In this document: in pieces, positions 6,378 through 24,945 of the stretch
Numbering within the stretch: the stretch's first letter is position 1
How the letters are laid out: every line of letters starts with the position of its first letter
Assembly: GCA_963839265.1 (NCBI GenBank)
Contig: CAWIUI010000008.1
Span: 97,235-161,234 of the forward strand
Length of the DNA: 64,000 nt
Source of the DNA: an uncultured beta proteobacterium
GTDB lineage: Bacteria > Pseudomonadota > Gammaproteobacteria > Burkholderiales > Usitatibacteraceae
Reading direction: 5' to 3'
The notes under the pieces: generated by a model
The model's database searches: none
What the model saw: the letters and a program-made list of their open reading frames with translations, nothing else
Told to the model about the DNA's origin: nothing
Program-made: the position numbers and the translations under genes

Positions 6378-6743
6378 TTAGCGGGCTGGCTTCTGGTGTT
6401 CTGGCAAGGTGGCCAGGATTAGGTCGCGGGCCTTGTCGCTGACTTGCTGCATCTGGGCGAGCAGGTCGCCGAGCGCGCGGCCGTTGCCGATCCATTCGGC
6501 GTAGAGGGCGGCCTGGGCTGCGCTGAGGCGGCGGGTGACGGTCTTCCCGCTGACCTTCCGGGTGTACTGCCAGTAGGGGCCGTGGCGCCTGGCGGGGTCG
6601 GCGTGGCATGAGCAGCCGGCCGTGCCGCATACGTTCCGGGTGCTCAGCACGGTGCCGGAGGCGGTGAACCCGATCTGTGCGATCTGGGCGGCGAGGTCGC
6701 GGTAGCGGGCACGCAGTTCGGCGAGGCCTGCTTCTTCGGTCAA
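6378..6743 (-). CDS. DUF6788-like IS-associated small protein
   Basis: CGTAGCSCH...HGPYWQYTRKV-GKTVTRRL motif; lies inside the IS, divergent from the transposase. Confidence 0.75.
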   Translation of the reverse strand: MTEEAGLAELRARYRDLAAQIAQIGFTASGTVLSTRNVCGTAGCSCHADPARRHGPYWQYTRKVSGKTVTRRLSAAQAALYAEWIGNGRALGDLLAQMQQVSDKARDLILATLPEHQKPAR

Positions 6744-6841
6744 GGATGTTCTCCCGTGTCGTGCGGCGTGCCGGCTGGCGCGCGCCTGCCGTAAGTATAG
6801 ATACTTACGGTAGATACCGGGCTACCGTCAAGGAGGTGGCG

Positions 6842-8558: not shown

Positions 8559-8596
8559 TCCCGGAGATAACCCAACCGAGAAGTGCGGAAGGTCAG

Positions 8597-9307
8597 GCTC
8601 AAGCTCGATCACGGGGGAGATTTTGGGATGATGCCGCTTCGAGCGGATCACCATGATCGTGCCGCAGGCCAGGGAAGCAAGAAGCAGGCCGATGAAGCCG
8701 ACCGAGCCCCACCCCAGGCCGGCGCCTTGACCAGCGCCAGCGCGACCAGGCCAACGGCCGCGGCGAGCAGCCCCGCGCCGATCAGGTCAGGCCGGCCGCT
8801 GGCCCGCTCGTCCTTGCTCTCGGGCACCACCTTGACGGCCAGCACCATCGCGGCCACCCCGACCGGCAGGTTCACCCAGAACACCCAGCGCCAGTCGATC
8901 TGCACCAGGGTGCCGCCGATCACCGGGCCGAGCGCCGCGCCGAGCGCGCCCAGCGCCGACCAGGTGCCCAGGGCCTTCGGCCGGGCGTCCGGCGGGACCG
9001 CGGCGAGCAGCAGCGACAGCGACGCGGGCACCATCGCCCCAGCGCCGGCCGCCTGGACGACCCGGGCCGCGATCAGCGCGGCCACGCCCGGCGCCAGCCC
9101 GCACAGCAGCGACCCGACGCTGAACACGGCCAGCCCGGCCACGAAGAACCGGCGCCGCCCGATCCGGTCGGCCCACCGCCCGGCCGGCACAAGCACGGCG
9201 GCGAACACGATCGTGTAGGCGTTGAGCACCCAGGACAGCGAGCTCAGGCTGGTGCCCGGGTACTGCTTGCCGATGGCCGGGAAGGCCAGGTTGACGATGA
9301 AAAGGTC
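8597..9307 (-). pseudogene. MFS transporter fragment 2 (DHA2/EmrB-QacA N-terminal half)
   Basis: DLFIVNLAFP, WVLNAY, GRWADRIGRRR motif A, WRWVFWVNLPVG; 1-bp deletion near 8718. Confidence 0.9.
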
Positions 9308-9864
9308 TCTGTTATCACCGTCTGCTCACCGCAAGGAGAGCGCCGTGACCAGTAACGACGATGCGAACCGCGAGCCCTACGACGTGCACGCGAAGTTGGA
9401 GGACCAGACGGGCGTGCTGGCCGTGGCCCTGGCGCAGGGGGAATTGCGGGACGACACCATGCCGCAGCCCGAGGTCCGCCGGGCGGCATCCATCGGGGTG
9501 GATGCGATCGACACCATGCTCGCCGCACTGCACGCGATGCGGGCCCGGCTGGTATCGGAGATCCGCGCCACCGACGACGCCGCGCCGCGCGAGCGGATGC
9601 GATGACCAAGGCTAACGGCCTGGCGTCCCGCCGGACATAGTTCCCGTGCCCGCGCAGCGTGACCACCAGGCCGCGCTCGCGCAGCAGGCCGATCGCCTGC
9701 CGCAGCGTGTTGTACGCAATGTCATACTCCGCTGCCAGCTCGCGCTCCGGGGGCAGCCGGGAACCCGGCGCCAGCTCCCCGGCCCGCACCCGCGCGGTGA
9801 GGTGATCCGCGACCTGGACATAGGCGAGCTGCAGCGGGTCGCGCGTGAACGGCGGCACAGCCAT
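9244..9864 (-). CDS. GntR-family winged-helix regulator (domain in first ~80 aa; true 3' end uncertain)
   Basis: AYVQVADHL...GSRLPPERELAAEYDIAYNTLRQAIGLLRERGLVVTLRGHGNYV. Confidence 0.8.
   Translation of the reverse strand: MAVPPFTRDPLQLAYVQVADHLTARVRAGELAPGSRLPPERELAAEYDIAYNTLRQAIGLLRERGLVVTLRGHGNYVRRDARPLALVIASARAARRRRWRGSPIPAGPASRAVRRAWCRSHPPRWMPPGGPRAAAWCRPAIPPAPGPRPARPSGPPTSRARRRARGSHRRYWSRRSPCGEQTVITETFSSSTWPSRPSASSTRAPA
9293..9320 (-). other. Hybrid att site at left end of the integrated element (P arm + GA core + B' arm)
   Basis: Minus strand reads CGGTGATAACAGA-GA-CCTTTTCATCGTC; the right arm is MFS coding sequence. Confidence 0.85.
9345..9605 (+). CDS. Hypothetical protein
   Basis: AAGGAG RBS before GTG; 86 aa, helical character. 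Confidence 0.55.
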   Translation: MTSNDDANREPYDVHAKLEDQTGVLAVALAQGELRDDTMPQPEVRRAASIGVDAIDTMLAALHAMRARLVSEIRATDDAAPRERMR

Positions 9865-9959
9865 AACAAGCACGCTATCGGTCCACTGACCAGCAGGGAT
9901 ACCGCACAGGCTCCCGTGTGCCTTAGCAAGCTCGCTATAGCAGTCGTAGCATTAGGCAC

Positions 9960-10214
9960 ATGAACGGTGACTATGCAGCCGACCTGGCCAGCCTGCGCTA
10001 CCACTGGGGCAGCGCCTACCTCATCGAGCACCCCGAGCCCGACGTCTGGATCGCGGTCCGGCGGGATGACCACGCCACGCTGCGCGCGGACAGCCCGGAG
10101 GCCCTGCGCGAGAAGATCGTCGCCGACTACACCGCTCACCCGGTGAGCAGGTCGGTGGCCCCCGGTACGGACCGGCCGGAGACGCCGAGCTGCCGGTTCC
10201 TGCCCGAGGCCTGA
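9960..10214 (+). CDS. Small hypothetical protein divergent from gntR
   Basis: 84 aa, LRYHWGSAY...WIAVRRDD; plausible composition. Confidence 0.6.
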   Translation: MNGDYAADLASLRYHWGSAYLIEHPEPDVWIAVRRDDHATLRADSPEALREKIVADYTAHPVSRSVAPGTDRPETPSCRFLPEA

Positions 10215-10795
10215 CGGCGAGGGCCAGGCCGAAGTGAGGACGGCCCTAGCGTGGTTGTGTAGAAATTCCTGGTAGGGCGGCGTGTCGGGTACTCGTGCTA
10301 TCGCACGATCGTGCTAACCTTGTCAATGTAAATAATCATCACTGGCCAGAGCGGGACGGCCGGAACCGGCAGTCCGAACCGCCCCGCCCTAGCTGTCACA
10401 CGTGCCGCGCGACGAGGTCCACCTTCAGTAAGACTCGTAGCTGGACACATGCGGTCGGCGGTCGCGGGTTCGTCACGTCACTGTGACTAGCCCCGGCCGT
10501 CACCACTCCAGCAATGGCCAGGCTCACGATCACCTGGACCCAGCCGGACACGCTCGGGTTCTGTTTCTTTCTGCCCATATTCACCTCCTTCCGCTATGCA
10601 CGGCACCCGGCTTGGTGCGCGATCGCAGCACCCAGACGGGCAGGAGGTAACCGAAGCGGGACCGGCGTAGGTCCTAGCAGTAAAAGTAACGGAGCCCGGT
10701 CGGATAGCCACGGAGGCACGCCGGGCGAGTCGGATGCATCTCTTTCACCGTCTGCGGAGGCGCGTGTTCTATCCAGGTCGTTTGGATGGTGACCT

Positions 10796-11161
10796 ATGAG
10801 CGATCGGCCCGGTGCCGATCGTGATCGGCTCCTCATTGCGGAGCTGCACGGCACGGCGGGCCACCACGCTAAGTGGCGCGAGCTGACCGAGGCCGAGGAG
10901 GCCGCTGCGGTGGCCGGGCTGCGGGAGCTTGCGGCCGGGCGCGTCGACCTGCTGGCCGAGGTCGCCGGGATCCTGGAAGGCGCGTCGGAAGGCGAACTGA
11001 ACGAGCCGATCAAGCGGCAAGCCGCGCAGCTGTGCCGCAAGGCAGGCGCCGACCCGAACGCGATACCCGCATGGGTAGAAGAAGGGCGCCGCCGCCGGGC
11101 GAATGCCGGCAAGCCGCCGTTCATCGAGGCGCGTTACCGGCGCCCTGGAGCCCGTGCGTAG
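10796..11161 (+). CDS. Hypothetical protein
   Basis: 121 aa helical ORF with GC3-rich codons. Confidence 0.55.
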   Translation: MSDRPGADRDRLLIAELHGTAGHHAKWRELTEAEEAAAVAGLRELAAGRVDLLAEVAGILEGASEGELNEPIKRQAAQLCRKAGADPNAIPAWVEEGRRRRANAGKPPFIEARYRRPGARA

Positions 11162-11330
11162 AGGGTCGCCGGGCGGGTCACAGGTACCGGGCCCGAGCGC
11201 CGCGCATTTTCCGGGTCGGCCCCTCCAGCGGGCCTGACGGCGAGGGCCAGGCCAGAGGCCAGGCCCTATCGGCGCGCGGCGAACTAACGGTAGCGACGCC
11301 ACGGAACGCCTGCAAGGTGCTGAAGTCCAG

Positions 11331-11566
11331 TCACGGGGACGTAATGCTTCCTGTAGGCGTCCATTTACCCAATGTGAAGGTAGGGTGCCAGAAGCTGAGG
11401 GGCCAGGTCAAGATCGAGATGAAGTACTGGATCCAGCTATGAAGCGTCGCCAGAGTGGCAGTAGTCGGCGGAATATGGGGGGTGCTGTGTTGTAGAAGAT
11501 ACCGATCAGAATGTAGATGGCAATGAGCAACCCAGTTGTGCTGAAAAGGGTTTTCAGGAATTTCAC
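11331..11566 (-). pseudogene. Small membrane protein, copy 2 (frameshift in G6 tract)
   Basis: GGAGGTG RBS; MKFLKTLFSTTGLLIAIYILIGIFYNTAPP then frame lost; paralog has G7; span is 236 nt. Confidence 0.75.
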
Positions 11567-11772
11567 CTCAGCTCACCTCCTGCGTGGACGCTGGAACTGG
11601 TGCAGATGAGTGACCGCCTTGCGGGCAGTAGACGCGGAACGTGCGGACGTAGGATGTCGTGTTCGTCACCAAGATTAAACACCATTCCAACATAGTCGTC
11701 TCGCAGGTCCTGCATGAGGGAGGAGACATGATCAGCAGGGTCGACCTCCAGGCTGCCTGCAAGATGCGGAAG

Positions 11773-12054
11773 TCACGGGAAGATAATGCTTCCTGTAGGT
11801 ATCCACTTACCCACTGAGAAGGTAGGGTGCCAGAAGCTGAGGGGCCAGGTCAAGATCGAGATGAAGTACTGGATCCAGCTATGAAGCGATGTGAAACTGG
11901 CAGCAGTCGACGGAAAATGGGGGGGCGCTGTGTTGTAGAAGATACCGATCAGAAAGTAGATCAGGATGATAAACCCAATTGGGCTGAAAATAAGGGCTAT
12001 ATAAGCACCGATTCCCCGAGATGTGGTCCCGCCCCTGATGAAGCTGAAAGCCAC
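11773..12054 (-). CDS. Small membrane protein, copy 1
   Basis: GGAGGTG RBS; 93 aa with hydrophobic segments; near-identical 3' half to copy 2. Confidence 0.75.
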   Translation of the reverse strand: MAFSFIRGGTTSRGIGAYIALIFSPIGFIILIYFLIGIFYNTAPPHFPSTAASFTSLHSWIQYFISILTWPLSFWHPTFSVGKWIPTGSIIFP

Positions 12055-12456
12055 CTCTGCTCACCTCCTGTGTGGACGCTGAAAGTGGTAAGGATGAGTG
12101 ACCGCTTTTGCGGTCAGTACCCCGGATACGGCGATCGTGGTGCGTAACACCACGAAGCCGTCAAGCTGGCCGCTTACGCGCGTCGGGCAGGCGGCAACCT
12201 GAGGGCGCAGGATGTCGTGCTCGTCCCAAGATTTGAACACCATTCCAACATAGCGGTTCTTCGCCATGAACCGCGGATCGTGTCCCGTGACACGCCGGTG
12301 AGGTAACAGGTGCATAGCCCGGCTGGCTTTTTTGACCACCTTAGGTGTCACCGCCCGCTTGACCGCACGGCCGGGATGGACCGCACGACGCACACTGCGC
12401 GGGATAAACAGCCTTGATGGGAAGCCCACGGACGAAAGGATAGCCCTCGGCCGGGC

Positions 12457-12609
12457 CTAGACCGGTTCCCACCGCCAGCCGTCGTTGTTTTCACAGATGA
12501 TCTTTTTGCCGTCTCCCGCCACCCCGAACGCCCAGCGCGCGCTGACCAGCGGCAGCCTGATCCGGCAGCGGACACAGGTCACCTCGTCGCGCAGCGGTAG
12601 TAGTTTCAC
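12457..12609 (-). CDS. Small Cys-containing protein
   Basis: GTG start overlapping the upstream stop (GTGA); CVRC and ICEN motifs. Confidence 0.45.
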   Translation of the reverse strand: MKLLPLRDEVTCVRCRIRLPLVSARWAFGVAGDGKKIICENNDGWRWEPV

Positions 12610-13004
12610 GGCCCTACCACCGGCATTCGGGGTGCCGATGCTGACGGGCGACCGCCGCTGGGCCGTGACATCGTGGGCGGTGCTGGCTGCTGGGAACGGA
12701 GGCGGCTCAGGCGGTGGCTCAGGCGGCGAAGCCGCTTGACTCGCTGTTCCGCAGCTGGCAGCGGCGGCAGGCCTGGCGACACTGGCGTCCCGATGATGCC
12801 GGCGAGGATGGACTTGCAGGGGCCGCAGGCGAACAGGTAGCCCAGGTAGGAGCCGCTGCTGTCGGCGGTCGGCGCCGCGTGCTGGTACGCGGTGCCGCAT
12901 CTGACGCAAGAGAGGTTCCAGGTGGGGGTATTCCCGCCGCCGGACGCGGCGGGTGCCGATGACGGACCCAGGCAGTAGTCCAGGATCGCGCGGGCGGCGG
13001 TCAC
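12606..13004 (-). CDS. Zn-ribbon-like hypothetical protein
   Basis: CVRC...CGPC; GTGA coupling with the upstream HTH gene. Confidence 0.55.
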   Translation of the reverse strand: MTAARAILDYCLGPSSAPAASGGGNTPTWNLSCVRCGTAYQHAAPTADSSGSYLGYLFACGPCKSILAGIIGTPVSPGLPPLPAAEQRVKRLRRLSHRLSRLRSQQPAPPTMSRPSGGRPSASAPRMPVVGP

Positions 13005-13291
13005 TGCGGGGCACCGGCCTGCTGCGTGGCCAGCGCGAGCACGCCGGCCTTGAACTGCCGCAGCTGCTCCAGCTCGATCTTCATCGCGGCGACATCGGCC
13101 TTGATGCCGGTGTAGACGCCGTGGTTCTCCCGCTCGAAGGAGCGGTAGACGGTGGTGCGGGCGACGCCGAAGTACCGCGCCACCTGGGACAGCGACGCGC
13201 CCGACTCGATCAGCTCGTGCGCCTGCGCCACCTTCTCGGGCGGCAGCGCCAGCTCCCGCCCGCGCCGCCGTGCTGCATCTGACAGCTCCAT
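13001..13291 (-). CDS. Stand-alone resolvase-type (Hin/HTH_7-like) HTH protein with coiled-coil tail
   Basis: GRELALPPEKVAQAHELIESGASLSQVARYFGVARTTVYRSF. Confidence 0.8.
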   Translation of the reverse strand: MELSDAARRRGRELALPPEKVAQAHELIESGASLSQVARYFGVARTTVYRSFERENHGVYTGIKADVAAMKIELEQLRQFKAGVLALATQQAGAPQ

Positions 13292-13536
13292 GGTGCCCCC
13301 TTGGTCCTAGCCATGCTGCCTACCTCAAGTATAACGAACACCTGTATGATGTAGATAGGCAGCATGCCCGTGGACCCGAACAAGGCTACGTAAATGTGTC
13401 AGACAACTGAATAAGGCGAGACGGAAGAACCCCCACCGAGGTAGGGGTTCAACCGATAAAGCTCAGGGCGGCGGCCAGCACTCCGCGCGCCTGACAACAG
13501 CACCATCCAACCGAGCTACCGAGAGAGGACGCTCTA

Positions 13537-14658
13537 ATGACATCTTATCAAGCGCAGCAGGTCGAACGCGAGTCTGATTTAAGCGGTCGAACCGGGGCGA
13601 ACGGCACCAGTGCCGGGTCCAACGGCGACGGCGGGCGCACCGGGGCATCGTCCAACGGCACCAGTGCCGGGTCCAACGGCGACGGGACGGACGCCGCCAA
13701 CGAGAACCCCTACAACGGCGACGGCCGGCGCCAGGAAGAACGCTGGATCGAGCCGTTCGTGAGGCTGGACCAGCTCAGCGACGAGCCCGTCGAGATGCGC
13801 ATTCCGGGCCTGCTGACCACGCGCGGCACCGTGCTGTTCAGCGGGTACCGGAAATGCGGGAAGACCACGCTTGACTTCCACCTGGTCAACGCGCTGTCCC
13901 AGGGCGGCAACTTCCTCGGGCGGCCCTGCACGCGGCTGACCGGCCCCCTGGTCTACGTGAACCTGGATATGACGGAGAACATGGTCCGCCAGTACGCCAC
14001 GGAGCAGGGTTGCCCGCTGGACAGCCCGGACATCCTCATCCAGAACTACCAGGGCATCGCCAGCAGGTTCCAGCTGGGCGACCCGTCGTGGCGCTACGAC
14101 TACGCCCAGATGCTCTATGACCAGCGTGCCGCCGCGCTGACGGTCGACCCGATCCACCCGCTGTTAATCGGCGTGTACGCCGACTCCAACAACAACGACG
14201 AGTCACGAGCCACCCTGGAGTACCTCGGCGAGGTCGCGCACCAGGCCAAGCTCAAGCACCTGATCATCATCGACCACACGGGGCACGCGGACAAGGGGCG
14301 GACACGCGGGGCCAGCGGCAAGGAGGACTGGGCCGATATGCTCTGGAACCTGCAGGGCGCCGAGGGCCAGCCCACCCGCACGCTCAACGTCATCGGGCGC
14401 GGCGTCATCGGGTCGGCGAGCTACCTGATGGGCGACGACCACCAGCTGGTGCCGTGCGATACGCCAGCGTCCCGCCAGTCGCCGCAGGAGGCGCAGCTGA
14501 CCGAGCGGGTGGCGATGATCAAGAAGATGCGCGAGCAGAACCCGGACATCACCCAGGCCGAGGTCGTCGAGATCACCAAGATCCCCAAGAGCGCCGTCAG
14601 CCGCCTCTGGGCACGGACCTTGGCGGACCGATCCGATACCGAACCCACCAGATTCTAG
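13537..14658 (+). CDS. RecA/RepA-type AAA helicase (AAA_25-like) with C-terminal HTH; putative Rep
   Basis: Walker A GYRKCGKTT, Walker B LTVDP, IIDHTGH and RGASG-EDWAD motifs; C-terminal ITQAEVVEITKIPKSAVSR. Confidence 0.8.
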   Translation: MTSYQAQQVERESDLSGRTGANGTSAGSNGDGGRTGASSNGTSAGSNGDGTDAANENPYNGDGRRQEERWIEPFVRLDQLSDEPVEMRIPGLLTTRGTVLFSGYRKCGKTTLDFHLVNALSQGGNFLGRPCTRLTGPLVYVNLDMTENMVRQYATEQGCPLDSPDILIQNYQGIASRFQLGDPSWRYDYAQMLYDQRAAALTVDPIHPLLIGVYADSNNNDESRATLEYLGEVAHQAKLKHLIIIDHTGHADKGRTRGASGKEDWADMLWNLQGAEGQPTRTLNVIGRGVIGSASYLMGDDHQLVPCDTPASRQSPQEAQLTERVAMIKKMREQNPDITQAEVVEITKIPKSAVSRLWARTLADRSDTEPTRF

Positions 14659-14664
14659 TGGGAG

Positions 14665-14778
14665 GTCCCCCAGTTGTCCCGGCGTCCCACCCGCCGTCCC
14701 GGCCGGGACGGGAATTGGGTGCAAGCTGTCCCGCCGTCCCGTCCCACCCACCACCCTTGGTGGTGGGACGGGCGGGAC
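14665..14778. repeat. GTCCC/GGGAC iteron-like cluster (putative origin)
   Basis: Seven GTCCC and three GGGAC copies in 114 bp plus an imperfect hairpin, starting 7 bp after the helicase stop. Confidence 0.7.
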
Positions 14779-14877
14779 AAGCACCTGGGAGAGCAACTGG
14801 GAGAAGTAAGGGCCAGTGGCGATGAACTCCACAGGGCTGGCAGAGAGCTGGCCAAGACCGAGCCGAAGGAGAACCCG

Positions 14878-15123
14878 ATGAGGAACAAGACCACGACCAA
14901 GAACCGCCCTACCCTGACCGCGTACCAGCACAGGCTGGCTGGCGTGGCGCTGGGCCACGGGTACGCCTGGCGTCCCGCGCTCGGCCCGGAAGAGACACGC
15001 TGGGCCACCGTCTACGCGGCGATCCTCCGCTACGCGGTGGAGCCGCTGTCCCACCCGCCCGGCTTACGCCGTGGCTGCCCGATCTGCGCGCACGAGCTGG
15101 CCGCGCTCGACGAGCAGACATAG
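14878..15123 (+). CDS. Small hypothetical protein
   Basis: AAGGAG RBS before ATG (MRNKTTT); C-terminal CPIC-H. Confidence 0.5.
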   Translation: MRNKTTTKNRPTLTAYQHRLAGVALGHGYAWRPALGPEETRWATVYAAILRYAVEPLSHPPGLRRGCPICAHELAALDEQT

Positions 15124-15267
15124 GGAGGTTCGATAGTGAACGTCCCCCCTGTCCGGAGCCAGCGCAGCGGCACCGACGTCTGGGATGATGGAGGACAAGA
15201 CGTATTGGAGGTGCAGCTCATGAGCGCTGTCTGGCGGCAGGGTGCTGACATCGGACCCGGCCGCGAC

Positions 15268-15771
15268 TTACGGCGGCACCAGCAGCAGCGGGGGCTCTAT
15301 CCCGGCGCGCACCCCGGCTCCGCCGAGCTTGACGCGCAGCTCGCTGGTGATCAGCCAGCTGTACGGCGTGATGTACAGCCCGCCGAGCTTGTCGTCCCGC
15401 AGCAGGTCTACGACCGTCCGCGAGCCGGTGACGTGCAGCATCATCGAGGTGGTGCCCAGCTCGTGGGCAAGACCCGTGCCGACCGGCGGCAGCAGCCAGT
15501 GCCGCAGCCAGATCTGGTCGTTCACCGCGATCATCAGGGGGGTGGGGCGCAGATTCGCCCAGTTCATACCGATCGTGGTGCCGCTGACTATCTCGGCCGC
15601 GCATACTTCCTCGACGGCCAGCCGAGCCCTCCAGTCGGCCGCGCTTGTGCCTGCGGTTGCGGGCAACCGCTCATCGGCGGCCGTGATGATCGTCGTTACC
15701 TCAACGCCGCGCACCGCGCCGGAGCCTCCTGGCGGCGCCGGCAGCACGCAGCTTCGCTCAGCTAAGGTCAA
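15268..15771 (-). CDS. Hypothetical protein
   Basis: 167 aa ORF with globular composition in its C-terminal two-thirds. Confidence 0.4.
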   Translation of the reverse strand: MTLAERSCVLPAPPGGSGAVRGVEVTTIITAADERLPATAGTSAADWRARLAVEEVCAAEIVSGTTIGMNWANLRPTPLMIAVNDQIWLRHWLLPPVGTGLAHELGTTSMMLHVTGSRTVVDLLRDDKLGGLYITPYSWLITSELRVKLGGAGVRAGIEPPLLLVPP

Positions 15772-15980
15772 CTACTACAGCGTGTAGTCCTACGCGTAAG
15801 CCCTGGAAGGTCCGCGCCGCCGCCGTCCTCGATCACGCCCAGGGCGTCGAACGCAGTTGCCAGGGCGACGTGGTGAGCACTGGTAGCAGTTCACCACCGG
15901 GTACCCGTCGACCACGACGACGGGCACCGAGAACACCTACGGCTCGCCGCCCGCTGAGCAACCTAGCGCCTTACCCGTAC

Positions 15981-16934
15981 CTAGCCCGCCTCGGCTGGCC
16001 CGGAGCCGGTGCCCGCCCGCTGCAGCCGGCCAGAATGGGCGTCTAGTTTCCAGCCCTCCGGAACCGGCGCGTCGGCGGGCCACTTGACGCCCGTGAGATT
16101 CGCGCCCACGAGGTACGCGCCCTTGACGTCTGCGCCGGTGAGGTCGACGCCGGCGAGGTTCGCACTCATGAGGCCCGCACCAGTGAGATCCGCGCTCACG
16201 AGATGCGCGCCCGCGAGATCTGCGCCCACTAGGTTCGCACCGGTGAGGTTCGCGCGGAGGAGATTCGCGCTTGCCAGGTTCGCGCGGAGGAGAATCGCAC
16301 AAATGAGCTTCGCGCCCCGGAGATCGAGTGGCCGGATGTCGCGCTTTGCATCGCGGCGTCCAACTACGGTCACGGCGGCCTGAACGTCGGGCCGGATCGA
16401 TGGGTCCCGCTTTTGGTCTCCGGTGCCTGGCGGCGTCCGCTGCTCGTCTGAGTGCTCGCGAATGAACGCGGTAAGTACTTCCATCACGGTCGGATGGTCT
16501 CTTGCGGAGTCGCGGGCGACGCGCTCCAGCGCGTAGATGCCGCCTATCCGCACGTCGAGCTTGTCCGAGCCGAGCTGCTCAATGGCCTTGGCGTAACGAT
16601 CGGTCACCTGCCCCTGCTCGGTCAGCTCATGGGTGCGCCGCTGCCACTGGTCGGCCTGTTCCGAGTTACGCCGCAACAGGCTGAAATTCAGGGCAGTGAA
16701 GACCAGCGCGGCTGCGGCAGCCAGGCCCGCGCCCAGCGTCAGCAGCCGGCCCCTGGCGTTATCCACGGCTGTCTCGTGCAGCGCACCCGTGGCTGAGCCG
16801 ACGTCCTGGCGCGCCAGCCAGTCCGCCAGCGGCATGAACGCCGCCCACACGACTGCCAGCCCGAACACGACAGCGGTGATCCCGCCTATCGTCCATCGGA
16901 TCCCCTGCGGCCATGCCGCCCAGCGCTTTAGCAC
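15981..16934 (-). CDS. Membrane-anchored pentapeptide-repeat protein
   Basis: Two TM segments, [29 protein letters not shown], then A(N/D)LxG repeats. Confidence 0.9.
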
Positions 16935-17308
16935 GTGAAGACGTTAGGGGGAATGAGCCTGTGCCCGCTCGCTGGTGCGGACATGAGGTAGCGAAATCGA
17001 TACCCAGGCGGATGCCCGGTGAAGGCCAAGCCGTCCGCGCCGTATGCCCTGCAGTATGTCGGGGCCGCCCGACCCGGTGACATAGCCGGGCCGGGAGCCT
17101 AGTCCGCTGGTACGTCCGGACCGTTCTTTAACGGTTGCTCTGCCGGGTAGCGCCGCGCCGAGGCTGCCAACTAGGGTTCCCGCCCAATCTGCCCGTCATC
17201 ACGATCTGTCACCGGCATCTGCGCTGGTCACTGACATGTCTGTCGCGCCTCGTCCTCCTTGCCGAGCACTGAATTAGGGCATAGGCTAGTTGGTAGGAGG
17301 AGAACATA

Positions 17309-17884
17309 ATGACCAGCATCGACGTCGCGGTCTGGTACCGCGTCAGTGGCAGCGACCAGACGACAGACAACCAGATCCCGGACGTGCAGCGGTTCTGCCA
17401 GCACCACGGGTACACGGTCACCAGGACCTACGAGATCAGCGACTCGGCCTGGAAGCAGGGGCCTGAGTACCGCAAGGCGGTCCAGCGGGCGCTGGACGAC
17501 GCGCAGGAGGGTCACTTCGCTGTGCTGGTGGTCTGGGCGCTTGACCGCATCGTCAGGTCGGGCAGCGAGGCAGGCAAGTCCGCGTCCGAGGAGGCGCTGT
17601 CGCTGTTCCGCCAGTTCGGCCAGCGGCACGTGTCCATCCTGTCCGTGAAAGAGCCGTGGCTCACGGCCTCGCCCGAGATCCAGGCCGTGATGATCAGCTT
17701 CGCGGCCTGGGTCGCCGAGCAGGAGAGCCGCCGCCGGTCCGAGCGCGTGCGTGCAGGGATGGCCAGGGCGAAGGCCGAGGGCAAGACGGTGGGCGGCAGG
17801 CAGCGCGGAGCCAAGGACCGCAAGCCGAGGTCACGGGCGGGGTACGCCGCCGAGCAGGCCCGGCGGAAGGCGGTCTCGTCATGA
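17309..17884 (+). CDS. Small serine recombinase (resolvase catalytic domain)
   Basis: AGGAGG RBS; YRVS (catalytic Ser), VWALDRIVR and E--RRSERVRAGM motifs. Confidence 0.9.
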   Translation: MTSIDVAVWYRVSGSDQTTDNQIPDVQRFCQHHGYTVTRTYEISDSAWKQGPEYRKAVQRALDDAQEGHFAVLVVWALDRIVRSGSEAGKSASEEALSLFRQFGQRHVSILSVKEPWLTASPEIQAVMISFAAWVAEQESRRRSERVRAGMARAKAEGKTVGGRQRGAKDRKPRSRAGYAAEQARRKAVSS

Positions 17885-18054
17885 TGCGCCAGCGGACCTA
17901 CCGCCTGATCGTGGTCGAGGTGGATGGCGAGGTCACCGATGAGGGTTGCACGCCGATCGAGCTGGAGGTGGCCACCTACCTCACCGAGTCGTGCTGCGCC
18001 CACGATGCGGTGCTGGCCGTAGCCGACCGCCTGGCTGATGAGCACGCCTCCTAG
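17881..18054 (+). CDS. Small hypothetical protein coupled to the recombinase
   Basis: ATGA overlap; MMRQRTYRLIVVEVDGEV. Confidence 0.45.
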   Translation: MMRQRTYRLIVVEVDGEVTDEGCTPIELEVATYLTESCCAHDAVLAVADRLADEHAS

Positions 18055-18803
18055 AACATGCTCCTGGTAGGGGTAGAGCGGAAGCCGTGGTTCCGGCTGA
18101 CCGTCTCGGCCACCGGGCTTCCCAGCTCAGGCACCCTGATCGTCTCCACGTTCGACGCCCTGAGCGCGATTCTGCGGCTCCCGGAAGCGCCAGGGTCCGG
18201 GGGGACTATGCCCACCTGCGCTCCTGGCGCTCCTACGCCCCTCTACAGCGCCGTACAGCACCGTTCCAGCCGCGCCGTCCCGTAGCTGAGTTCGACTTTA
18301 TCCGCCCAGCAGCGGAAGGCCCCATCCCTTTAATTGCCTGGCATAAAAGCGGCTGCCCAGGGTGGTTGGGCGGCCCGCTGAAAATGCGACCGCACGAGGT
18401 GCAGAAAACAGGTACCGGAGAAGTTGAGCCAGCCCAGCCGCGCGCAGTGCCGCCTGACAGCCTCGGGTGTGCCCGTCTCAGCGGTTCCTCCGGGTGCGGT
18501 ACGTCCATGCACCTGCACCTGCATGTAGGCCGCGCGCTCGCACCAGTCCTTCTTGGCCAGCTCGGAGACGTAGCAGGGCCTCCAGATGAACGTCTCGCAG
18601 CAGATGCATCTCCGGGTGACCAGCGGGTTGATCAGTAGATCATCGGCACCGCTGCGCTCTTGGGCACACGCACATCCGATGCTCTCCTACAGCGCGCCGG
18701 TGATCCGGTTACCCAACTGGCTGGTTAACTGGCCAAGACGCGGGTTGGTGACGTAGTTGAGCCTGGCACTTCATGAACCAGATGTCGCTGGCGCACGAGG
18801 GAT

Positions 18804-19250
18804 TCAGCGGACGAGCGCCTGTCGCCGGCTGGCCGTCGCCGACCAGCGCACGATGCCGGCCTCGGCGAGCTGCTGCAGCGCCGCCGGCACATGCTGCTTG
18901 GCGATCCCGGTCCGTGCCGTGACCATCGCCTGCGTCACCGCCGCGCCGGGCTGCAGGTCGCCGCGCTTCACCAGCTCCGCGACCGTGCGCACGGCGTCGT
19001 CCACCATTATCTGCCGGGCGTCACGCTTCCTGGTATCGTGGCCGCGCCGGATATGGTCAGCCAGGTGCTCGGCTGCGGTCTTGCCGCCGACCGTGATGTG
19101 CTCGGCCCCGCAGTGTGGGCAACGGGCACGTTCGGCGACGTCAGGCGAAGATAACCGCTCGGTACGCCACGGCGAGCTGCCCTTTAATGCGGTGATGCGA
19201 CCGTCGACCAGGCTGTGTTGCGGGGTGTAGCCGCTGGTCCTCAACGCCAC
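18804..19250 (-). CDS. C2H2 Zn-finger + winged-helix protein
   Basis: CPHC...HLADH; C-terminal GntR-like VTQAMVTARTGIAKQHVPAALQQLAEAGIV. Confidence 0.6.
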   Translation of the reverse strand: MALRTSGYTPQHSLVDGRITALKGSSPWRTERLSSPDVAERARCPHCGAEHITVGGKTAAEHLADHIRRGHDTRKRDARQIMVDDAVRTVAELVKRGDLQPGAAVTQAMVTARTGIAKQHVPAALQQLAEAGIVRWSATASRRQALVR

Positions 19251-19593
19251 TCGTCTTCGGTGGCCGGGTCGCGCCGGTAGCCGGGCGGCACCTGACGGGA
19301 TGAGTCGCGCAGCTGCCCGCTGAACACCTGCTTGTTGGCCACACGCGGGTCGGCGTAACCAGGCAGCCCATCGAACATCCCCTGGCTGCTCGCCGTGGTA
19401 TGTCCCGGCCTGCGCGGTGGCCCGGCTGGCGGCGCGTCGTGTACGCCAAGCTCGTCGCGATGCGCCACGAAGTCAGCCATGCTCATCGTCGCGAGCTGGT
19501 CCGCGTCGAGCTGGCTGGCGTCGGCCTGCTGCGGGACCGCCGGACCGGCAGCGGAAGCGATCTTCTCCTGCCACCAGGTGGACCTCGACGCGT

Positions 19594-20685
19594 TTAGCGC
19601 CGACTGGGGTATCCACTTAACCGGACTGGAAACTGCAGCTGGATTTCGGCGGTCCGCCACGGGCGGTCCGCCGCTGGGCGCTCGAGGCTCGGAGGGTGTC
19701 CCGTGCCGCCCTCGGCTCGCTTCGCACGGCGCGGCTTTTTGCTGGCGAGCAGATCCACGTACCGGACTGGCTCGTGGCCGGCGGCTAGCTGCAGGACCCG
19801 GTAGAACACCATGCCCCGGCTGGCCGATCGGCGGCGGTTGAACCGGAAGACGAACTCGTTGAGATAGGCGGGCAGGTGCGCGGCGTCAACCGAGCCCTGG
19901 TGGGTGCCCAGCAGCCACCGCTTGCACAGCGAGGCGACCCGATGGACTCCGGGCAGCAGGCTGTCCGGGTCATCCCCAGCGGCGCGGGCCGCTTTCTGGT
20001 TGATGGGCCGGTGCTGATATCCCTTGCCGCTGATGGCCCGGTAAGCGGCCCAGCCGTCAGTGATGACCGTCGCCCCTGGCTGGACGTTCTCGGTGACGAA
20101 CGTGCCCAGCGTGTCACCGCTGGCGTCATCGAGCGGCGCCATCCGGCAGCGGCCGATGCCCTTCGGCTCGCGAACCTCCACGGCGATCCCGGTGAGGACC
20201 TTCTTGCCGCGCTGCCGCCCGCCCCGCAAACCGGGCTCCTCGCCGCCGATGTAGGTCTCATCGACCTCGACCGTGCCGGACAGCCGGTCACGGCCCGGCC
20301 GCACCAGCGCTGACCGGAGCCGGTGCAGCATTGCCCACGCCGTCTGATAGGAGCCGATCTCCAGCACCCGCTGCAGGTGCTGGGCGGAGATGCCGTCCTT
20401 GGCGGTCGCGAACAGCCAGCAGGCGTGGAACCACACCGTCAGCGGTGTGCGCGTCTTGTCGAAGATAGTCCCAGCCGTCACCGAGGTCCGTGATCCGCAG
20501 CCGCCGCACTTGACCCGGCCGTCACCCAGCCGCCAGCCTCCCGCATGACCGCAGTCCGGGCAAACGAATCCGCCCGGCCAGCGCAGCCACTCAAGGTAGT
20601 CCAGGCAGTCGTCGTCAGTGCCGTACCAGGAAAGGAACTCGCCGGTCGATCTCGGGTAGTGCGCGCCCGCGACCGGTGTCGTCAT
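19594..20685 (-). CDS. IS1595-family transposase
   Basis: N-terminal Zn ribbon CPDC/CGGC; VEVDETYIGG, ITDGWAAY and YLNEFVFRFNRR motifs. Confidence 0.95.
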   Translation of the reverse strand: MTTPVAGAHYPRSTGEFLSWYGTDDDCLDYLEWLRWPGGFVCPDCGHAGGWRLGDGRVKCGGCGSRTSVTAGTIFDKTRTPLTVWFHACWLFATAKDGISAQHLQRVLEIGSYQTAWAMLHRLRSALVRPGRDRLSGTVEVDETYIGGEEPGLRGGRQRGKKVLTGIAVEVREPKGIGRCRMAPLDDASGDTLGTFVTENVQPGATVITDGWAAYRAISGKGYQHRPINQKAARAAGDDPDSLLPGVHRVASLCKRWLLGTHQGSVDAAHLPAYLNEFVFRFNRRRSASRGMVFYRVLQLAAGHEPVRYVDLLASKKPRRAKRAEGGTGHPPSLERPAADRPWRTAEIQLQFPVRLSGYPSRR

Positions 20686-20720
20686 GCGACGAGTCTAGTC
20701 CGGTTAAGTGGATACCCCAG
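19604..20720 (-). mobile_element. IS1595-family insertion sequence
   Basis: 24-bp perfect IRs CTGGGGTATCCACTTAACCGGACT; 8-bp TSD AGCGCCGA (19596-19603, 20721-20728). Confidence 0.95.
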
Positions 20721-20963
20721 AGCGCCGATACCCGCTCGGCTTGTCTGGCGCGGGATTCGAGCTGGTCGAGTGCGCGGGCCTGGTCTTGCTCGGTCATTGT
20801 CGTCTCTTCCTTGTCATAACCTGGAGGAGGAATTCGAGACCCTTGCGATTCCCGAATTCCTCCCGCTTCCCTTACGGCCGGAACTGGCGGCCTTGTATCC
20901 ATTATCCCATGAAATTCCTGATATACTTAAGTGTGTATAGAAGAGCATTATCAGGAGAGGGCA

Positions 20964-21116
20964 ATGGCGAGGTCAATCGCTAATTTCAGCCTCGATCCGG
21001 AGCTATTGGCGTGGTTCCAGGGCCAGGCGCAGCTGGAAGGCCGCCCGATGAGCCGCATCGTGGCCAGGCTGCTCACCGAGTACCGGGCTAAGCAGGCGGA
21101 GAAGTCCAGCGCATGA
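20964..21116 (+). CDS. Ribbon-helix-helix (CopG-like) protein
   Basis: 50 aa: NFSLDPELLAWFQGQAQLEGRPMSRIVARLLTEY; CAGGAG RBS. Confidence 0.7.
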   Translation: MARSIANFSLDPELLAWFQGQAQLEGRPMSRIVARLLTEYRAKQAEKSSA

Positions 21117-21739
21117 GCCTCAGCGAGCCGATCGCGTTAGACCTTGAGCTGCGTGCCTTCGTCTACCGGCTGTGGAACGCGGACGGCGCTTGCATGTATG
21201 TCGGGCAGCACCGTGGTATCCATCCAGCTGTCCGCATCAACCAGCATCGGAGCCAGCCCTGGTTCGGCGAGGTTGATCATGCTGACTTCGTAGAGATCCT
21301 GGACGGTGACCTGGATATCGCCGAGAAGCAGATGATCGCCGACTTGGAGCCGCGCTACAACAATGGCGGCTATTACGGGCTCCATCCCCGTGCCCCGCTG
21401 CCGCCGGAGGATGTGCGTGCACCGCATGATGACGAGGATCTGCTATTTCGCGATTTCCTGCTGCGTCTCCTGGAGGAGAACCTGGGCGCTGACCTCTGGG
21501 CGCTCGTCAAGGCCCGCAGTGAAGCAGCTGGCCGACGAGCGGAGCGCGTGATGACTGACTCCGTACTCGACCCCCGCACCCACCCGGTGAGCTTCGACAT
21601 CACCCAGCCGCCGCAGCAGGTCATCGCGCGGGCGCTGGCTGAGCCCGCCGCTGACCGCCTGCGACAGCGCCTTGATGATCTTGAGCACCGCCTGGATATC
21701 CTGCAGGGCATCCTGGCCGATCTCCTGGAGGACAGTTAG
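21113..21739 (+). CDS. GIY-YIG-domain protein with C-terminal coiled coil
   Basis: FVYRLW...MYVGQ...RINQH...AEKQMI...PRYN; ATGA overlap with the RHH gene. Confidence 0.75.
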   Translation: MSLSEPIALDLELRAFVYRLWNADGACMYVGQHRGIHPAVRINQHRSQPWFGEVDHADFVEILDGDLDIAEKQMIADLEPRYNNGGYYGLHPRAPLPPEDVRAPHDDEDLLFRDFLLRLLEENLGADLWALVKARSEAAGRRAERVMTDSVLDPRTHPVSFDITQPPQQVIARALAEPAADRLRQRLDDLEHRLDILQGILADLLEDS

Positions 21740-21914
21740 ATATGGCAGTCACCCCGTTCGACCCGACCGTCTCGACGCTGCTCATCCCGAACCAGCTCCA
21801 GCCCGTTAACGGTGTCTCGGACGCGACTTTCCTCAACCAGTTGCTGCCCTACGCCTCACGCATCAGCCCGATTACCCGAGCGCAGCAGCAGGTGCAGCAG
21901 GAAGGACAGCCGGA

Positions 21915-22286
21915 ATGACGAAGACCGGGAACAAGAACTTCGCGCAGGGCCAGGCCGTGTCGGAGCGCGAGACGGGAGCCGGGTGGGGATCTCCCGCTGA
22001 TAGCGCCAGCCCGCTGCCGCTCGATCAGCATCACACCCGCCGCAGTTACGTCGGTTTCGGCGAGATGCCGCGCGATGCCCGGCGTGAGCTGGCCAAGGCG
22101 GGTGATGAGCTGGAGCGCACCGTGATCAACCTGTCTGCGGCTCAGCTGGTCCACGGCGCGACCAGGGGCCTGCCCGGCCAACATGATGAGGTGGACAGCC
22201 CCGGCCGCACGTCCGGCAAGATTCCGCGCCGTGCATACGTTCCTGGGAGCCGCATACGCGCGGCCAGCAGCCGAGGGCCGGGATGA
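21915..22286 (+). CDS. Hypothetical protein
   Basis: GGAAGGA RBS; first gene of a coupled run of ORFs. Confidence 0.5.
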   Translation: MTKTGNKNFAQGQAVSERETGAGWGSPADSASPLPLDQHHTRRSYVGFGEMPRDARRELAKAGDELERTVINLSAAQLVHGATRGLPGQHDEVDSPGRTSGKIPRRAYVPGSRIRAASSRGPG

Positions 22287-22424
22287 TCCATTGGACCGCT
22301 ATGTAGGTGTTCGCGCGCTGCTGCTGCCGTCGTCGTCAGCGCCCCGCAGCGGCTTCGACCGCACGCATGAGCTGAGCCATCACGACGTGGCCGGCACCAC
22401 CATCATCAACGCGCTGGAGCAGTC

Positions 22425-22697
22425 ATGAACGACGACGACCGCTGGCAGACGCAGCGGGTGGCTGATCACCGCGTGCGGGAAGATGACAGGTTAGCCAGCG
22501 CCCGTGACCAGGCTCGGTTCCACGGCCCGCCGCCGCACACGGTCGCGCTGTTCTCCGAGCGCATGTTCACGCCCAATGCCCGCGAATCCCAGCAGCTCGG
22601 CACGGTAAGCGGCGAAACCGCGCTCGGCCTGCCGCCCGCGCCGATCACCGTGGGACGGGCACGACCGAGTGACTACGACGAGGAGGACTACCGGTGA
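22425..22697 (+). CDS. Hypothetical protein
   Basis: GGAG RBS; ATGA and GTGA overlaps at its two ends. Confidence 0.55.
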   Translation: MNDDDRWQTQRVADHRVREDDRLASARDQARFHGPPPHTVALFSERMFTPNARESQQLGTVSGETALGLPPAPITVGRARPSDYDEEDYR

Positions 22698-23161
22698 CAG
22701 TTTCACTCTTGGACGCCGAGGGCCGCCCGATATCCGCATTCGGCTCCCATGCGTCCTGGAATCAGGGCGCGGTGACCAATGCCGCGTCGTTCAGCGAGAC
22801 GGGCGCAGGCAGTACCAGCGGCAGCACCGGCACGGGCGCGGCCAAGATCTCGCCGACCAAGGCGGGCTCGACCAAGGCCCTGGGGTACCAGGATCTGGCC
22901 GCTCAGAGCCCTGGCGCGCCCCACCAGCCGCCCCTGGAGGTGGCCCCGGCACAGATCACGCCGCCGCGCACCAACCCCGATGAGCAGCCCGGCAGCAACC
23001 CGGTGGGCGATGCGCTCAAGGCGGTCGCGCAGCACTACGGGCCGACGGAGCAGCCCGGCCGTAACGACGAATTCCAGGTCGGGCGGACCAGCAGCCTCCC
23101 AGGTGCGGGCGAAGCAGCCGGCATAGCCGAAGACCTGGCCGACGTCGCGGAGGTGGCGTAG
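22694..23161 (+). CDS. Hypothetical low-complexity protein
   Basis: GAGGAGG RBS; GTGA overlap; rich in G/S/T/A/P. Confidence 0.55.
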   Translation: MTVSLLDAEGRPISAFGSHASWNQGAVTNAASFSETGAGSTSGSTGTGAAKISPTKAGSTKALGYQDLAAQSPGAPHQPPLEVAPAQITPPRTNPDEQPGSNPVGDALKAVAQHYGPTEQPGRNDEFQVGRTSSLPGAGEAAGIAEDLADVAEVA

Positions 23162-23430
23162 CCGTGCAGCTGAACGCGACTGAGCCGTTCGACATTAACG
23201 GCGCGGTCGGGCAGCTGGCTCATTTCGCCAAGGGCATCGTGTCCGGCCGTCCGGGTCATACTCTTCCAGCTGCCGCAGGCGGTGCTGGCGAGGTGGCCGA
23301 GGAGGCTGCCCCGTTACTGCTGGCCTGAGCGTCGCTGTAGCCTGTTCTGCGCGCCGGGTACCCAATGCACGCTGATCGCCGTAGAACCGCCTTCAGGTGC
23401 CACTACAGCGCGTCCAGCGTGATCTAGGCG

Positions 23431-24809
23431 TCAGGCCGGGTACGGGAACACCCCGTGGTCCGCGCCGTCGATGATCACCCGGACGCCCTTGGTCGCGCCG
23501 GGATCAGCCGGCGTGGCCTTCTCCACCCGGATGTCACGGGTCTTGAGGTACTCCCGCTTGCCGTCGTCGTCTAGGCCGTAGAAGTGCTCGCCGACCGTCA
23601 TCCCGGTATCGCGGTCCACTCCCAGTGGCCCGCCGTGGCCTCCTCCTCGTTCTTGCGCCGGTACTCCGCCAGCGTGGCCTGCAGCGCGGGCAGGTTCTCG
23701 AACCGCTCGGCCTCCACGGCTTCGCGCAGGTCCTGCTTCACGTCGGCTATCTCGGCATCCCAGTTGATGCCCGTGGCCCATTCGCGGGTCCGGTAAGGCT
23801 CCTCGCTGGTCAGGAACACCCGCGTGATCACGATGGTCTCGGCCTGCGCCAGCGGGACCATGTTGCCGCATCCCTTCCGCTGCGGTCCCGAGCCGAAGCA
23901 CCGGTAGTAGTACCGCCCGCCGCCCGTGCTGCCGCTCTTGATCCGGTACATCGGCGAGCCGCAGCGGGCGCACCGGAGGCCGGCGAGCATCGGCGGGTCA
24001 AGCGTCGCGGGTCCGCGATGCGGCCGGGTCTTCAGCGCCTGGTTGGCGCGGTCGAACACGTCGGCCGGCACTACCGCCTCGCACCGTTGGATGGTCACGC
24101 CCTGGCGGTTCTGCAGCCGGCCGGCGTACGCCCTGGTGCGGATCGTCCAGCGGACGCTGCTCTCATTCCAGTGCGCCTTGCCCCGTGGCGACGGGATGCC
24201 CTCGGAATCCAGCCAGGCGGCGATCGTCCGCAGCGAGTCGCCGGCGATACACCGGGCGAATATGTGCGGGACCACCCGGCGGCACAGGGCGGTCGGCACG
24301 ATCCGCTTGTGGTGCTTGGCGCCCTCGATCGTGAACCCCCACGGGACGTTGCTGTACACCGCGCCGTTCCGGTGCATGGTGTCGAGCGCGATCTTGACCT
24401 GCTCAGACAGGTGGACCGAGTGCTGGTGGGCGATGACCGCGCCGAGGGCCGTGACGGCCTCGCCTGACAGGTCCTCGGTGCCGAGCAGCGGCTCCTTCAC
24501 CGACTCGATCCGCCCGCCGGCGTCCTTGACCTGCCGGAGCAGCCGGAACAGCGCCTCGGGACCACGCCGCTCGGCGCGGTCGCTGTGCCAGCACACCAGC
24601 ACCCTGATCGTGCCCTCGCGCATGTCGTTCAGCATCTCGTCCAGCGTGGCCTGCTGCTCGCCCTTGCTGGCGCTCTTGTCGTTCAGCTCGTACCGCCGCG
24701 TCACCAGGTAGCCACGCTCCTGGCAGTGCCGCTCGACGTCGGGAACCTGGCTGGCCTCGTTCTGGTCGGCCGTGGAAACCCGGACCCAGGTGCCTGCTGG
24801 CTCGTTCAT
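23431..24809 (-). CDS. Large serine recombinase (integrase), apparent frameshift near 23612
   Basis: WVRVS, WHSDRAER, recombinase domain, Zn ribbon CARC...YRC...GC and coiled coil; tail (DTGMTVGEHF...) is in another frame; start is 48 bp from the att core. Confidence 0.9.
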
Positions 24810-24843
24810 CGTCCTCGCCCTGCCCTTCACCTGTTAGCATACT

Positions 24844-24871
24844 CGGTGAGAACAGGTCCAGGCTGGACATG
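24844..24871 (-). other. Hybrid att site at right end of the integrated element (B arm + GA core + P' arm)
   Basis: Minus strand reads ATGTCCAGCCTG-GA-CCTGTTCTCACCG. Confidence 0.85.
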
Positions 24872-24945
24872 AAGATGGCCAGCGAAAGCACGCCGATCAC
24901 GGCAGTGACCCGGCGAGCGTCCGGCAGCGGGGAAGGGGAGCTCAC
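24857..24945 (-). pseudogene. MFS transporter fragment 1 (N-terminal 29 codons)
   Basis: AGGAGG RBS, GTG start, MSSPSPLPDARRVTAVIGVLSLAIFMSSLD; continues at 9305 as LFIVNLAFP. Confidence 0.85.

Follow-up and report, generated by a model that had tools for sequence, protein, structure and literature searches.

The window analysed here, a 64,000-nucleotide stretch of contig CAWIUI010000008.1, carries a discrete insertion in a drug-efflux gene of the major facilitator superfamily (MFS) of a soil actinomycete, brought about by a large serine recombinase (LSR) and still bounded by an intact attL/attR pair. The inserted element is 15,551 bp long, or 14,426 bp without an IS1595-family insertion sequence (IS) and its duplication. 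We consider it probable that this is a mosaic integrative actinomycete element, made up of an integrase, a replicon of its own and cargo, with no transfer genes, that works like the staphylococcal cassette chromosome (SCC) or the replication core of the Staphylococcus aureus pathogenicity islands (SaPIs). A sequence-only reading of the same DNA had instead taken it for a helper-dependent phage satellite of a possibly undescribed family, a claim that the evidence below bears out only in part.

A discrete insertion in an MFS efflux gene

The interrupted MFS gene is read on the minus strand from its start at 24945 (VSSPSPLPDARRVTAVIGVLSLAIFMSSLDLF...) to the interruption at 24858/24850, and continues from 9307 (DLFIVNLAFPAIGKQY...). 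Its N-terminal stub of 31 codons (24859-24945, minus strand) lies to the right of the element and its EmrB/QacA-like body (8648-9298, minus strand) in the left flank. A 9-bp core, GACCT(G/T)TTC, is present at both element ends: the left copy (9299-9307; GAAAAGGTC on the plus strand, GACCTTTTC on the MFS strand) is joined to the C-terminal portion of the transporter, and the right copy (24850-24858; GAACAGGTC on the plus strand, GACCTGTTC on the MFS strand) to the N-terminal stub, such that the element occupies codons 30-32 (D-L-F) of the EmrB/QacA-type gene. Intact orthologues in four actinomycete genomes (G419, G818, G822 and G824) run straight through the junction at 80-91% identity, and DNA alignment gives the empty site, attB, as ...TCCAGCCTG GACCTGTTC ATCGTCAAC..., with the 9-bp common core between its arms (5' arm written ...CAGCCTG-). 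Agreement with attB is limited to one side at each of the two element junctions. At position 6 of the core, the integrase side has the G of attB and the opposite side a T, which places strand exchange within TTC. Judged by the split gene, the att cores and the empty sites, the sequence-only reading was essentially exact in proposing a discrete 15.5-kb element at 9308-24856, and its estimate of about 14.4 kb without IS1595 agrees with the computed length.

The same MFS locus has been struck by two mobile elements. An IS1634-like transposase gene with a DUF4277 N-terminal domain (6677-8656, plus strand) cuts the transporter gene off at about 8629-8648 and removes its C-terminal 300-320 codons or so; a DUF6788 gene lies at 6378-6743.

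Tetranucleotide analysis showed that the contig (C8) from position 1 to about 136 kb is sharply unlike the rest of the assembly (G000), with scores of -4 to -5 compared to about 0 on the second component of a principal component analysis, and that composition switches at 36.8-40.8 kb of the window (about 134-138 kb of the contig). By its composition the contig is probably chimeric, with actinomycete DNA joined to that of another organism, unless it contains a very large foreign island. The element and both of its flanks lie within the actinomycete-type segment, which is why we regard the insertion itself as real, and the composition of the element matches that of its flanks. Orthologues of the MFS gene with 87-95% identity are abundant in metagenome-assembled genomes labelled Streptosporangiaceae and absent from the listed relatives of the assembly, which points to an actinomycete as the true host. 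Searches of the assembly's relatives, order and class and of the assembly itself found nothing; because the contig is chimeric, these negatives carry little weight for the true host.

The integrase and its relatives

The integrase gene lies at the right end of the element on the minus strand (23598-24830, probable start 24809), and its product has the Resolvase, Recombinase and Zn_ribbon_recom domains of an LSR. An integrase at one end had been proposed from the sequence and is present, but the gene is frameshifted. The reading frame ends early, at about residue 403, giving 403-410 residues here compared to 445-500 in nearly all of the 310 homologues (best identity 76%), and the displaced C-terminal tail is found in another frame at 23431-23619 (minus strand), where it aligns with residues 401-445 of homologue P0027 (E 1e-11). 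The frame breaks after the coiled-coil motif and outside any long homopolymer; it reflects either a real mutation or an assembly error.

The best relative of this integrase (P0027 type, in locus L017; 76% amino acid identity) is inserted in an orthologous MFS gene at the identical position. At the nucleotide level, the flank of L017 is 85% identical to that in the window, and the integrase-proximal arm GTTAGCA..CTCGGTG is kept, but the L017 integrase adjoins the opposite half of the MFS gene and the core is inverted relative to the integrase gene and its conserved arm (L017:9933-10001). The opposite orientation at the same attB indicates an independent insertion and a working site-specific system in this LSR clade. 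An in-frame ATG within the att arm of L017 provides a new start for its truncated MFS gene.

The cargo of L017 comprises a stand-alone GntR-type winged helix-turn-helix (wHTH) gene (mini-GntR), a type I restriction-modification system and IS66; a search with IS66 aimed at extending this element returned only other IS copies. The other clade contexts (L019, L033, L034 and the context of P0037, the last again with a mini-GntR gene) contain regulators, transporters, an arginine-deiminase pathway, ATPases and small unknown open reading frames (ORFs). No phage gene was found in any of these five contexts, and IMG/VR yielded a single LSR relative, with 36% identity, beside an HK97 capsid gene. These contexts support the view that the clade marks non-viral cargo islands and not phages, and the element has the features of such islands: a clade integrase at its end, an att arm just upstream of the integrase gene and a conserved gene as target. 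The IMG/VR locus (L039; IMGVR_UViG_3300036829_000379, 10.4 kb), which combines the distant LSR (36%) and the HK97-type capsid gene with a WhiJ-like XRE/DUF5753 regulator, is a small element in the style of phiRv1 and the EPIPs, unlike the element in the window.

A second serine recombinase of 191 residues, consisting of the catalytic domain only, is encoded at 17309-17884 (plus strand). Paralogous to the N-terminal domain of the LSR, to which it is 37% identical, it has clade-specific motifs in common with the integrase and lacks a DNA-binding domain; no relative was found among solved structures at E 1e-5. The possibility that it is a second LSR truncated by decay of its C-terminus was rejected, as there is no trace of such a terminus downstream. 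Mixed oligomers might allow it to modulate the integrase. An 86-residue orphan ORF at 9345-9605 (plus strand) adjoins the att site and would be divergent from the integrase gene in the circular form; its position alone makes it a candidate directionality factor.

The helicase and its candidate origin

The proposed replicon contains an AAA_25 initiator helicase (13537-14658, plus strand) with a weak MarR-type C-terminal wHTH and a Gly/Ser/Asn-rich N-terminal extension encoded by repeats. The iteron cluster reported just after this gene is there: ten GTCCC/GGGAC iterons with a long hairpin embedded among them occupy 115 bp (14665-14779), which is the densest such cluster in the 4.09-Mb assembly (genome mean, 0.25 per 150 nt) and forms a candidate origin. 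In SaPI Rep and SCC Cch2, the DNA-binding domain of the initiator helicase reads iterons just downstream (PMC7581432). The arrangement of initiator helicase, C-terminal DNA-binding domain and directly adjacent iterons thus supports assignment to a replication module of the type found in SaPIs and other phage-inducible chromosomal islands (PICIs). We also considered 32-bp repeats at 13600-13685 as operators and rejected them, since they lie inside the helicase frame, match the phase of G+C content at third codon positions (GC3) and precede the point at which homology starts.

Divergent from the helicase gene is one for a protein with an HTH_7 (resolvase-type) helix-turn-helix and a coiled coil (13001-13291, minus strand), a candidate regulator to which a tentative zinc-ribbon ORF (12606-13004, minus strand) is coupled. 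Between the divergent genes, an AT-rich stretch is enclosed by a perfect inverted repeat of 11 bp (CATGCTGCCTA ... TAGGCAGCATG; 13302-13366; 13 bp counting the flanking G-C pairs), which is a candidate operator. The stand-alone helix-turn-helix gene divergent from an AAA helicase that had been described from the sequence is present. The element also has a separate mini-GntR gene (9640-9873, minus strand), whose ORF continues to 9244, which suggests that its stop was lost. The best phage-collection match, found with mini-GntR, is to MulchRoom gp11, a protein of a Streptomyces satellite (51% identity over 69 residues).

Only 24 homologues of the helicase were found among 5.8 billion proteins. 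The close relatives, with 43-58% identity, occur solely in large actinophage-like contigs: all seven homologues that were looked up, and two further loci from a scan with the helicase alignment, lie on phage-like contigs (records of 14-119 kb), and the 10-kb flanks of the gene contain tail or baseplate genes wherever they are annotated. The phage gene order after the helicase is primase-polymerase (Prim-Pol), SNF2 helicase, PolA, RecA and WhiB. Scans of the metagenome_contigs and viral_contigs collections with the helicase alignment gave only more loci of the same phage type, and 251 genomes of the family of G419, to which the host is likely to belong, gave no close relative and five distant matches (28-31% identity) within ORFs of 800-1460 residues. 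These results support a phage type for the helicase of the element. L007, L009, L010, L012, L013, L016 and L036/L037 form a coherent group of uncultured actinophage contigs with a conserved gene order and a high GC content (52-66%).

The phage homologues likewise have short repeats and a hairpin directly 3' of the helicase gene, before Prim-Pol, and the sequences of these repeats differ from those in the window. The helicase alignment is poorest in the C-terminal wHTH (coverage 62-80%), which would fit a private origin specificity. No other ORF of the element matched the helicase-bearing phage loci. Prim-Pol was absent from the element and from the whole assembly in a six-frame search, and a Prim-Pol remnant downstream of the helicase gene was looked for and not found.

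Lifestyle of the element and comparison with known systems

Our searches support the conclusion that the element has no detectable virion or conjugation genes. Pfam and PHROG scans gave no match for any orphan ORF, and NCBIfam and PADLOC scans of ten ORFs each gave nothing for orphans. The element gave no match in six-frame searches with FtsK_SpoIIIE, Phage_capsid and TerL_ATPase; with PF01580, the assembly gave one full match (contig C4) and two sub-threshold fragments, on contigs C7 and C2, and neither the element nor the 136-kb actinomycete segment gave any. When all orphans were compared by tblastn with 50,697 phage and 72,556 plasmid records, the GntR domain alone matched. The sequence-only reading was thus right that no capsid, terminase or FtsK/TraB gene can be recognised. 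It had also named decayed head, tail or TraB genes among the orphans as the finding that would speak against a satellite, and no such remnant of head, tail, terminase or TraB was found at the sensitivity of profile hidden Markov models.

In the mosaic integrative element that we favour, the LSR would excise the element and the circle would replicate from the GTCCC iteron array, which the AAA_25 helicase would recognise through its C-terminal winged helix, under the control of the divergent HTH_7 protein and the mini-GntR repressor. Priming and synthesis would come from the host or a co-resident helper, because the element is without the Prim-Pol and polymerase that accompany the helicase in its phage relatives, and transfer would be borrowed from a helper as well, because no packaging or conjugation gene is present; such dependence on a helper is an argument from the absence of genes. 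The present copy is probably decaying, in view of the integrase frameshift, the IS1595 copy within an ORF and the run-on GntR ORF; at least two genes (the frameshifted integrase gene and the IS-split ORF) are disrupted. Three points weigh against this account. The frameshifts could be assembly errors, since the assembly behind the contig is chimeric; a packaging or interference module may be hidden among the ORFs, most of which cannot be given a function; and the phage origin of the helicase, together with the likeness of mini-GntR to MulchRoom gp11, leans towards a phage-linked lifestyle.

The last of these points is developed furthest in the view that the element is a phage satellite, of the type of the Vibrio cholerae PICI-like elements (PLEs) or of a "minimalist" type, that parasitises large WhiB-encoding actinophages with a homologous helicase. 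A helper would trigger excision by the LSR, the helicase would load at its own iterons, the helper's Prim-Pol, PolA and capsids would be borrowed, and the target of the GIY-YIG nuclease, itself controlled by the Arc-like repressor, would be the helper. The confinement of close helicase relatives to phage-like contigs, 21-119 kb long among those looked up, with baseplate genes, Prim-Pol, SNF2, PolA, RecA and WhiB is consistent with this scheme, as are the lack of Prim-Pol in element and assembly, the size of 14.4 kb without the IS, the 51% identity of mini-GntR to MulchRoom gp11, and the PLE-like layout of LSR, initiator and iteron origin (PMC7145576), PLEs also using a nuclease against their helper (PMC9410903). 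However, no TerS, capsid, adaptor, scaffold or PHROG structural match was found, unlike in MulchRoom/MiniFlayer and the EPIPs, actinobacterial satellites that encode TerS, capsid or adaptor genes (PMC12822802); searches turned up no sister element; the LSR clade is not viral and the integrase frameshifted; and a helicase identity of 50-58% to those phages speaks against recent exchange. We think a satellite unlikely, and marginally less likely in its most specific form, a PLE-like minimalist satellite of WhiB-encoding actinophages of about 100 kb with an integrase, a phage-derived helicase, private iterons and small effectors, which, if real, would be the first actinobacterial satellite without a morphogenesis gene of its own. 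The argument for a satellite rests on gene absence and on the phage ancestry of one gene. The claim of a satellite family is not supported: no sister element was found, all helicase contexts examined are large phage contigs and the LSR relatives lie in non-viral islands with unrelated cargo; described actinobacterial satellites have TerS, capsid or adaptor genes and the element has none, and its frameshift and IS point to decay.

Decay could also be that of a prophage that lost its structural genes by deletion and kept its integrase, its regulators and some of its replication module. The phage-type helicase, the signs of decay, and an Arc-like repressor and GIY-YIG nuclease of kinds common in phages would agree with such a remnant, which we nevertheless regard as improbable: both att junctions are intact and precise, which makes any deletion purely internal, six-frame searches found no capsid, TerL or Prim-Pol remnant, the integrase relatives lie in non-phage islands, and the phages with the helicase look like large lytic phages, the 10-kb flanks that were examined being free of integrase genes. 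If the element were instead integrative and mobilisable, with the TraB of a co-resident plasmid or actinomycete integrative and conjugative element (AICE) moving it in trans, the GTCCC array would have a clt-like function instead of or besides that of an origin. The clt loci of Streptomyces are repeat arrays recognised by TraB; by analogy, the dense short direct and inverted repeats resemble such recognition arrays, and mini-GntR (KorSA-like) regulators, here with plasmid matches, are typical of actinomycete conjugative elements. This reading is very unlikely, given that neither the element nor the 136-kb actinomycete segment contains TraB/FtsK, that the repeats sit exactly where initiator helicases have their origins and that only GntR shows likeness to any plasmid gene. 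We give the least credence to the idea that the element is not mobile at present, being either an inert genomic island or an artefact of assembly. The contig is indeed compositionally chimeric and the integrase frameshifted, but the flanks are halves of one actinomycete gene whose empty site exists elsewhere, the intact target duplication of IS1595 indicates recent real biology, and element and flanks match in composition.

Compared with known systems, the mosaic element favoured here cannot be assigned to any of the PICI/SaPI, PLE, SCC, AICE and actinobacterial-satellite families. By analogy, its closest functional counterparts are SCC elements and the SaPI replication core, and its closest satellite counterpart is the PLE. 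With SCC and SCCmec it has in common an LSR, site-specific insertion in a conserved gene, a helicase with iterons downstream of the operon, variable cargo, the lack of transfer genes and a transfer route that is unresolved (PMC7581432). The resemblance is functional only: the helicase is of an AAA_25-wHTH type instead of Cch (DUF927) or Cch2 (Primase_Cterm), neither of which gave matches here; the element has no CCPol-MP or other primase; one integrase and a catalytic-domain-only paralogue take the place of ccrAB or ccrC; and the target is an MFS gene, not rlmH (orfX), in an actinomycete host. SaPIs and other PICIs resemble the element in size, in an integrase at one end, in a divergent regulator by the replication operon, and in a Rep helicase whose C-terminal domain binds the origin and whose gene is followed directly by iterons. 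They differ in normally having a tyrosine integrase, whereas that of the element is a frameshifted serine integrase; no primase, terS, cpm, ppi or capsid gene was found here, the regulator pair lies away from the integrase, and there is no family of relatives.

PLEs share an LSR integrase, an initiator with an iteron origin, mostly orphan genes and a nuclease effector with the element (PMC7145576, PMC9410903). They rely on a large lytic helper for replication proteins, whereas helper dependence is only proposed for the element, and their RepA_N initiator is without helicase activity, whereas the initiator here is a phage-type AAA_25 helicase; no PHROG or phage-collection match links the element to PLE genes. 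MulchRoom/MiniFlayer, the EPIPs and phiRv1-like elements with an LSR and a capsid gene (e.g., L039) have actinomycete hosts and sizes of 10-15 kb, and the EPIPs and L039 also have serine integrases. MulchRoom has a GIY-YIG nuclease as well, though the two proteins are not specifically related (pairwise E 0.049), and its annotation includes TerS, TerL, a portal, a scaffold, a capsid, adaptors and a tyrosine integrase, none of which is in the element. AICEs are likewise integrative and replicative, have a GntR-type regulator, and contain spd genes, of which the overlapping runs of small ORFs here are reminiscent; the element differs from them in that no FtsK/SpoIIIE-type TraB and no Prim-Pol were found, and AAA_25 was the only replication protein in family scans, which included no separate search for RepSA or RepAM.

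If the replicon works, the element would be an actinomycete counterpart of the SCC/SaPI-type islands with "integrase + initiator helicase + iterons", whose transfer routes are still debated, and its replicon would be built around a helicase otherwise seen solely in large actinophages, as an example of a phage replication gene captured without its primase partner. For a serine-integrase clade that is uncharacterised, it also yields a clean attB/attP pair; the target of this clade is a widely conserved efflux gene, and two of its members use the same site in opposite orientations. Represented by one copy that is partly broken and lies on a chimeric contig, the element is a lead and not a demonstrated new satellite family.

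Remaining genes and repeats

The gene map of the element (window 9299-24858) was drawn from GC3 frame analysis and family scans. An 84-residue orphan at 9960-10214 (plus strand) was the sole ORF folded with AF2; the model was of low confidence (pLDDT 61) and gave no fold match. A 121-residue orphan (10796-11161, plus strand) lies between two exact 23-bp direct repeats (GGCCTGACGGCGAGGGCCAGGCC; 10208-10230 and 11231-11253), which bracket a 1-kb segment and may act as a common terminator or have been left behind by recombination. A tandem duplication of genes for small membrane proteins (81-89% identity) occupies a low-GC segment at 11329-12253 (minus strand). Downstream of the iterons are an 81-residue orphan (14878-15123, plus strand), a 167-residue ORFan (15268-15771, minus strand) and, as cargo, a pentapeptide-repeat protein with N-terminal segments that appear hydrophobic by eye (15981-16934, minus strand). 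The 167-residue ORF was the one orphan searched exhaustively against 1.84 billion representatives, among which it matched only itself.

The second divergent module described from the sequence has the layout that was claimed, with weak family support for two of its members. On the plus strand, an Arc-like ribbon-helix-helix protein (20964-21116; phrog_3180, E 7.5e-7) is followed by a GIY-YIG-like nuclease with a helical C-terminal half (21113-21739; Pfam E 3.5e-4, below the cut-off, and PHROG endonuclease E 4.7e-5). Divergent from these, on the minus strand, is an operon in which a 143-residue ORF precedes the gene of a possible zinc-finger and wHTH protein (18804-19250; E about 1e-3). The 143-residue ORF is split by IS1595 into a C-terminal part (19241-19603) and 23 N-terminal codons (20729-20797). 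The IS (19604-20720, minus strand; transposase 19594-20685) has 27-nt inverted repeats and an 8-bp target-site duplication, AGCGCCGA, and is the sole copy in the assembly.

Beyond the nuclease gene lie five or six overlapping small orphan ORFs (21742-23328, plus strand) that are of low complexity by eye. Within them, at 21915-22428, the GC3 phase moves from the frame of the ORF at 21915 to that of the ORF at 22183 near 22200-22300, which suggests either one frameshifted gene of about 170 residues or two overlapping genes.

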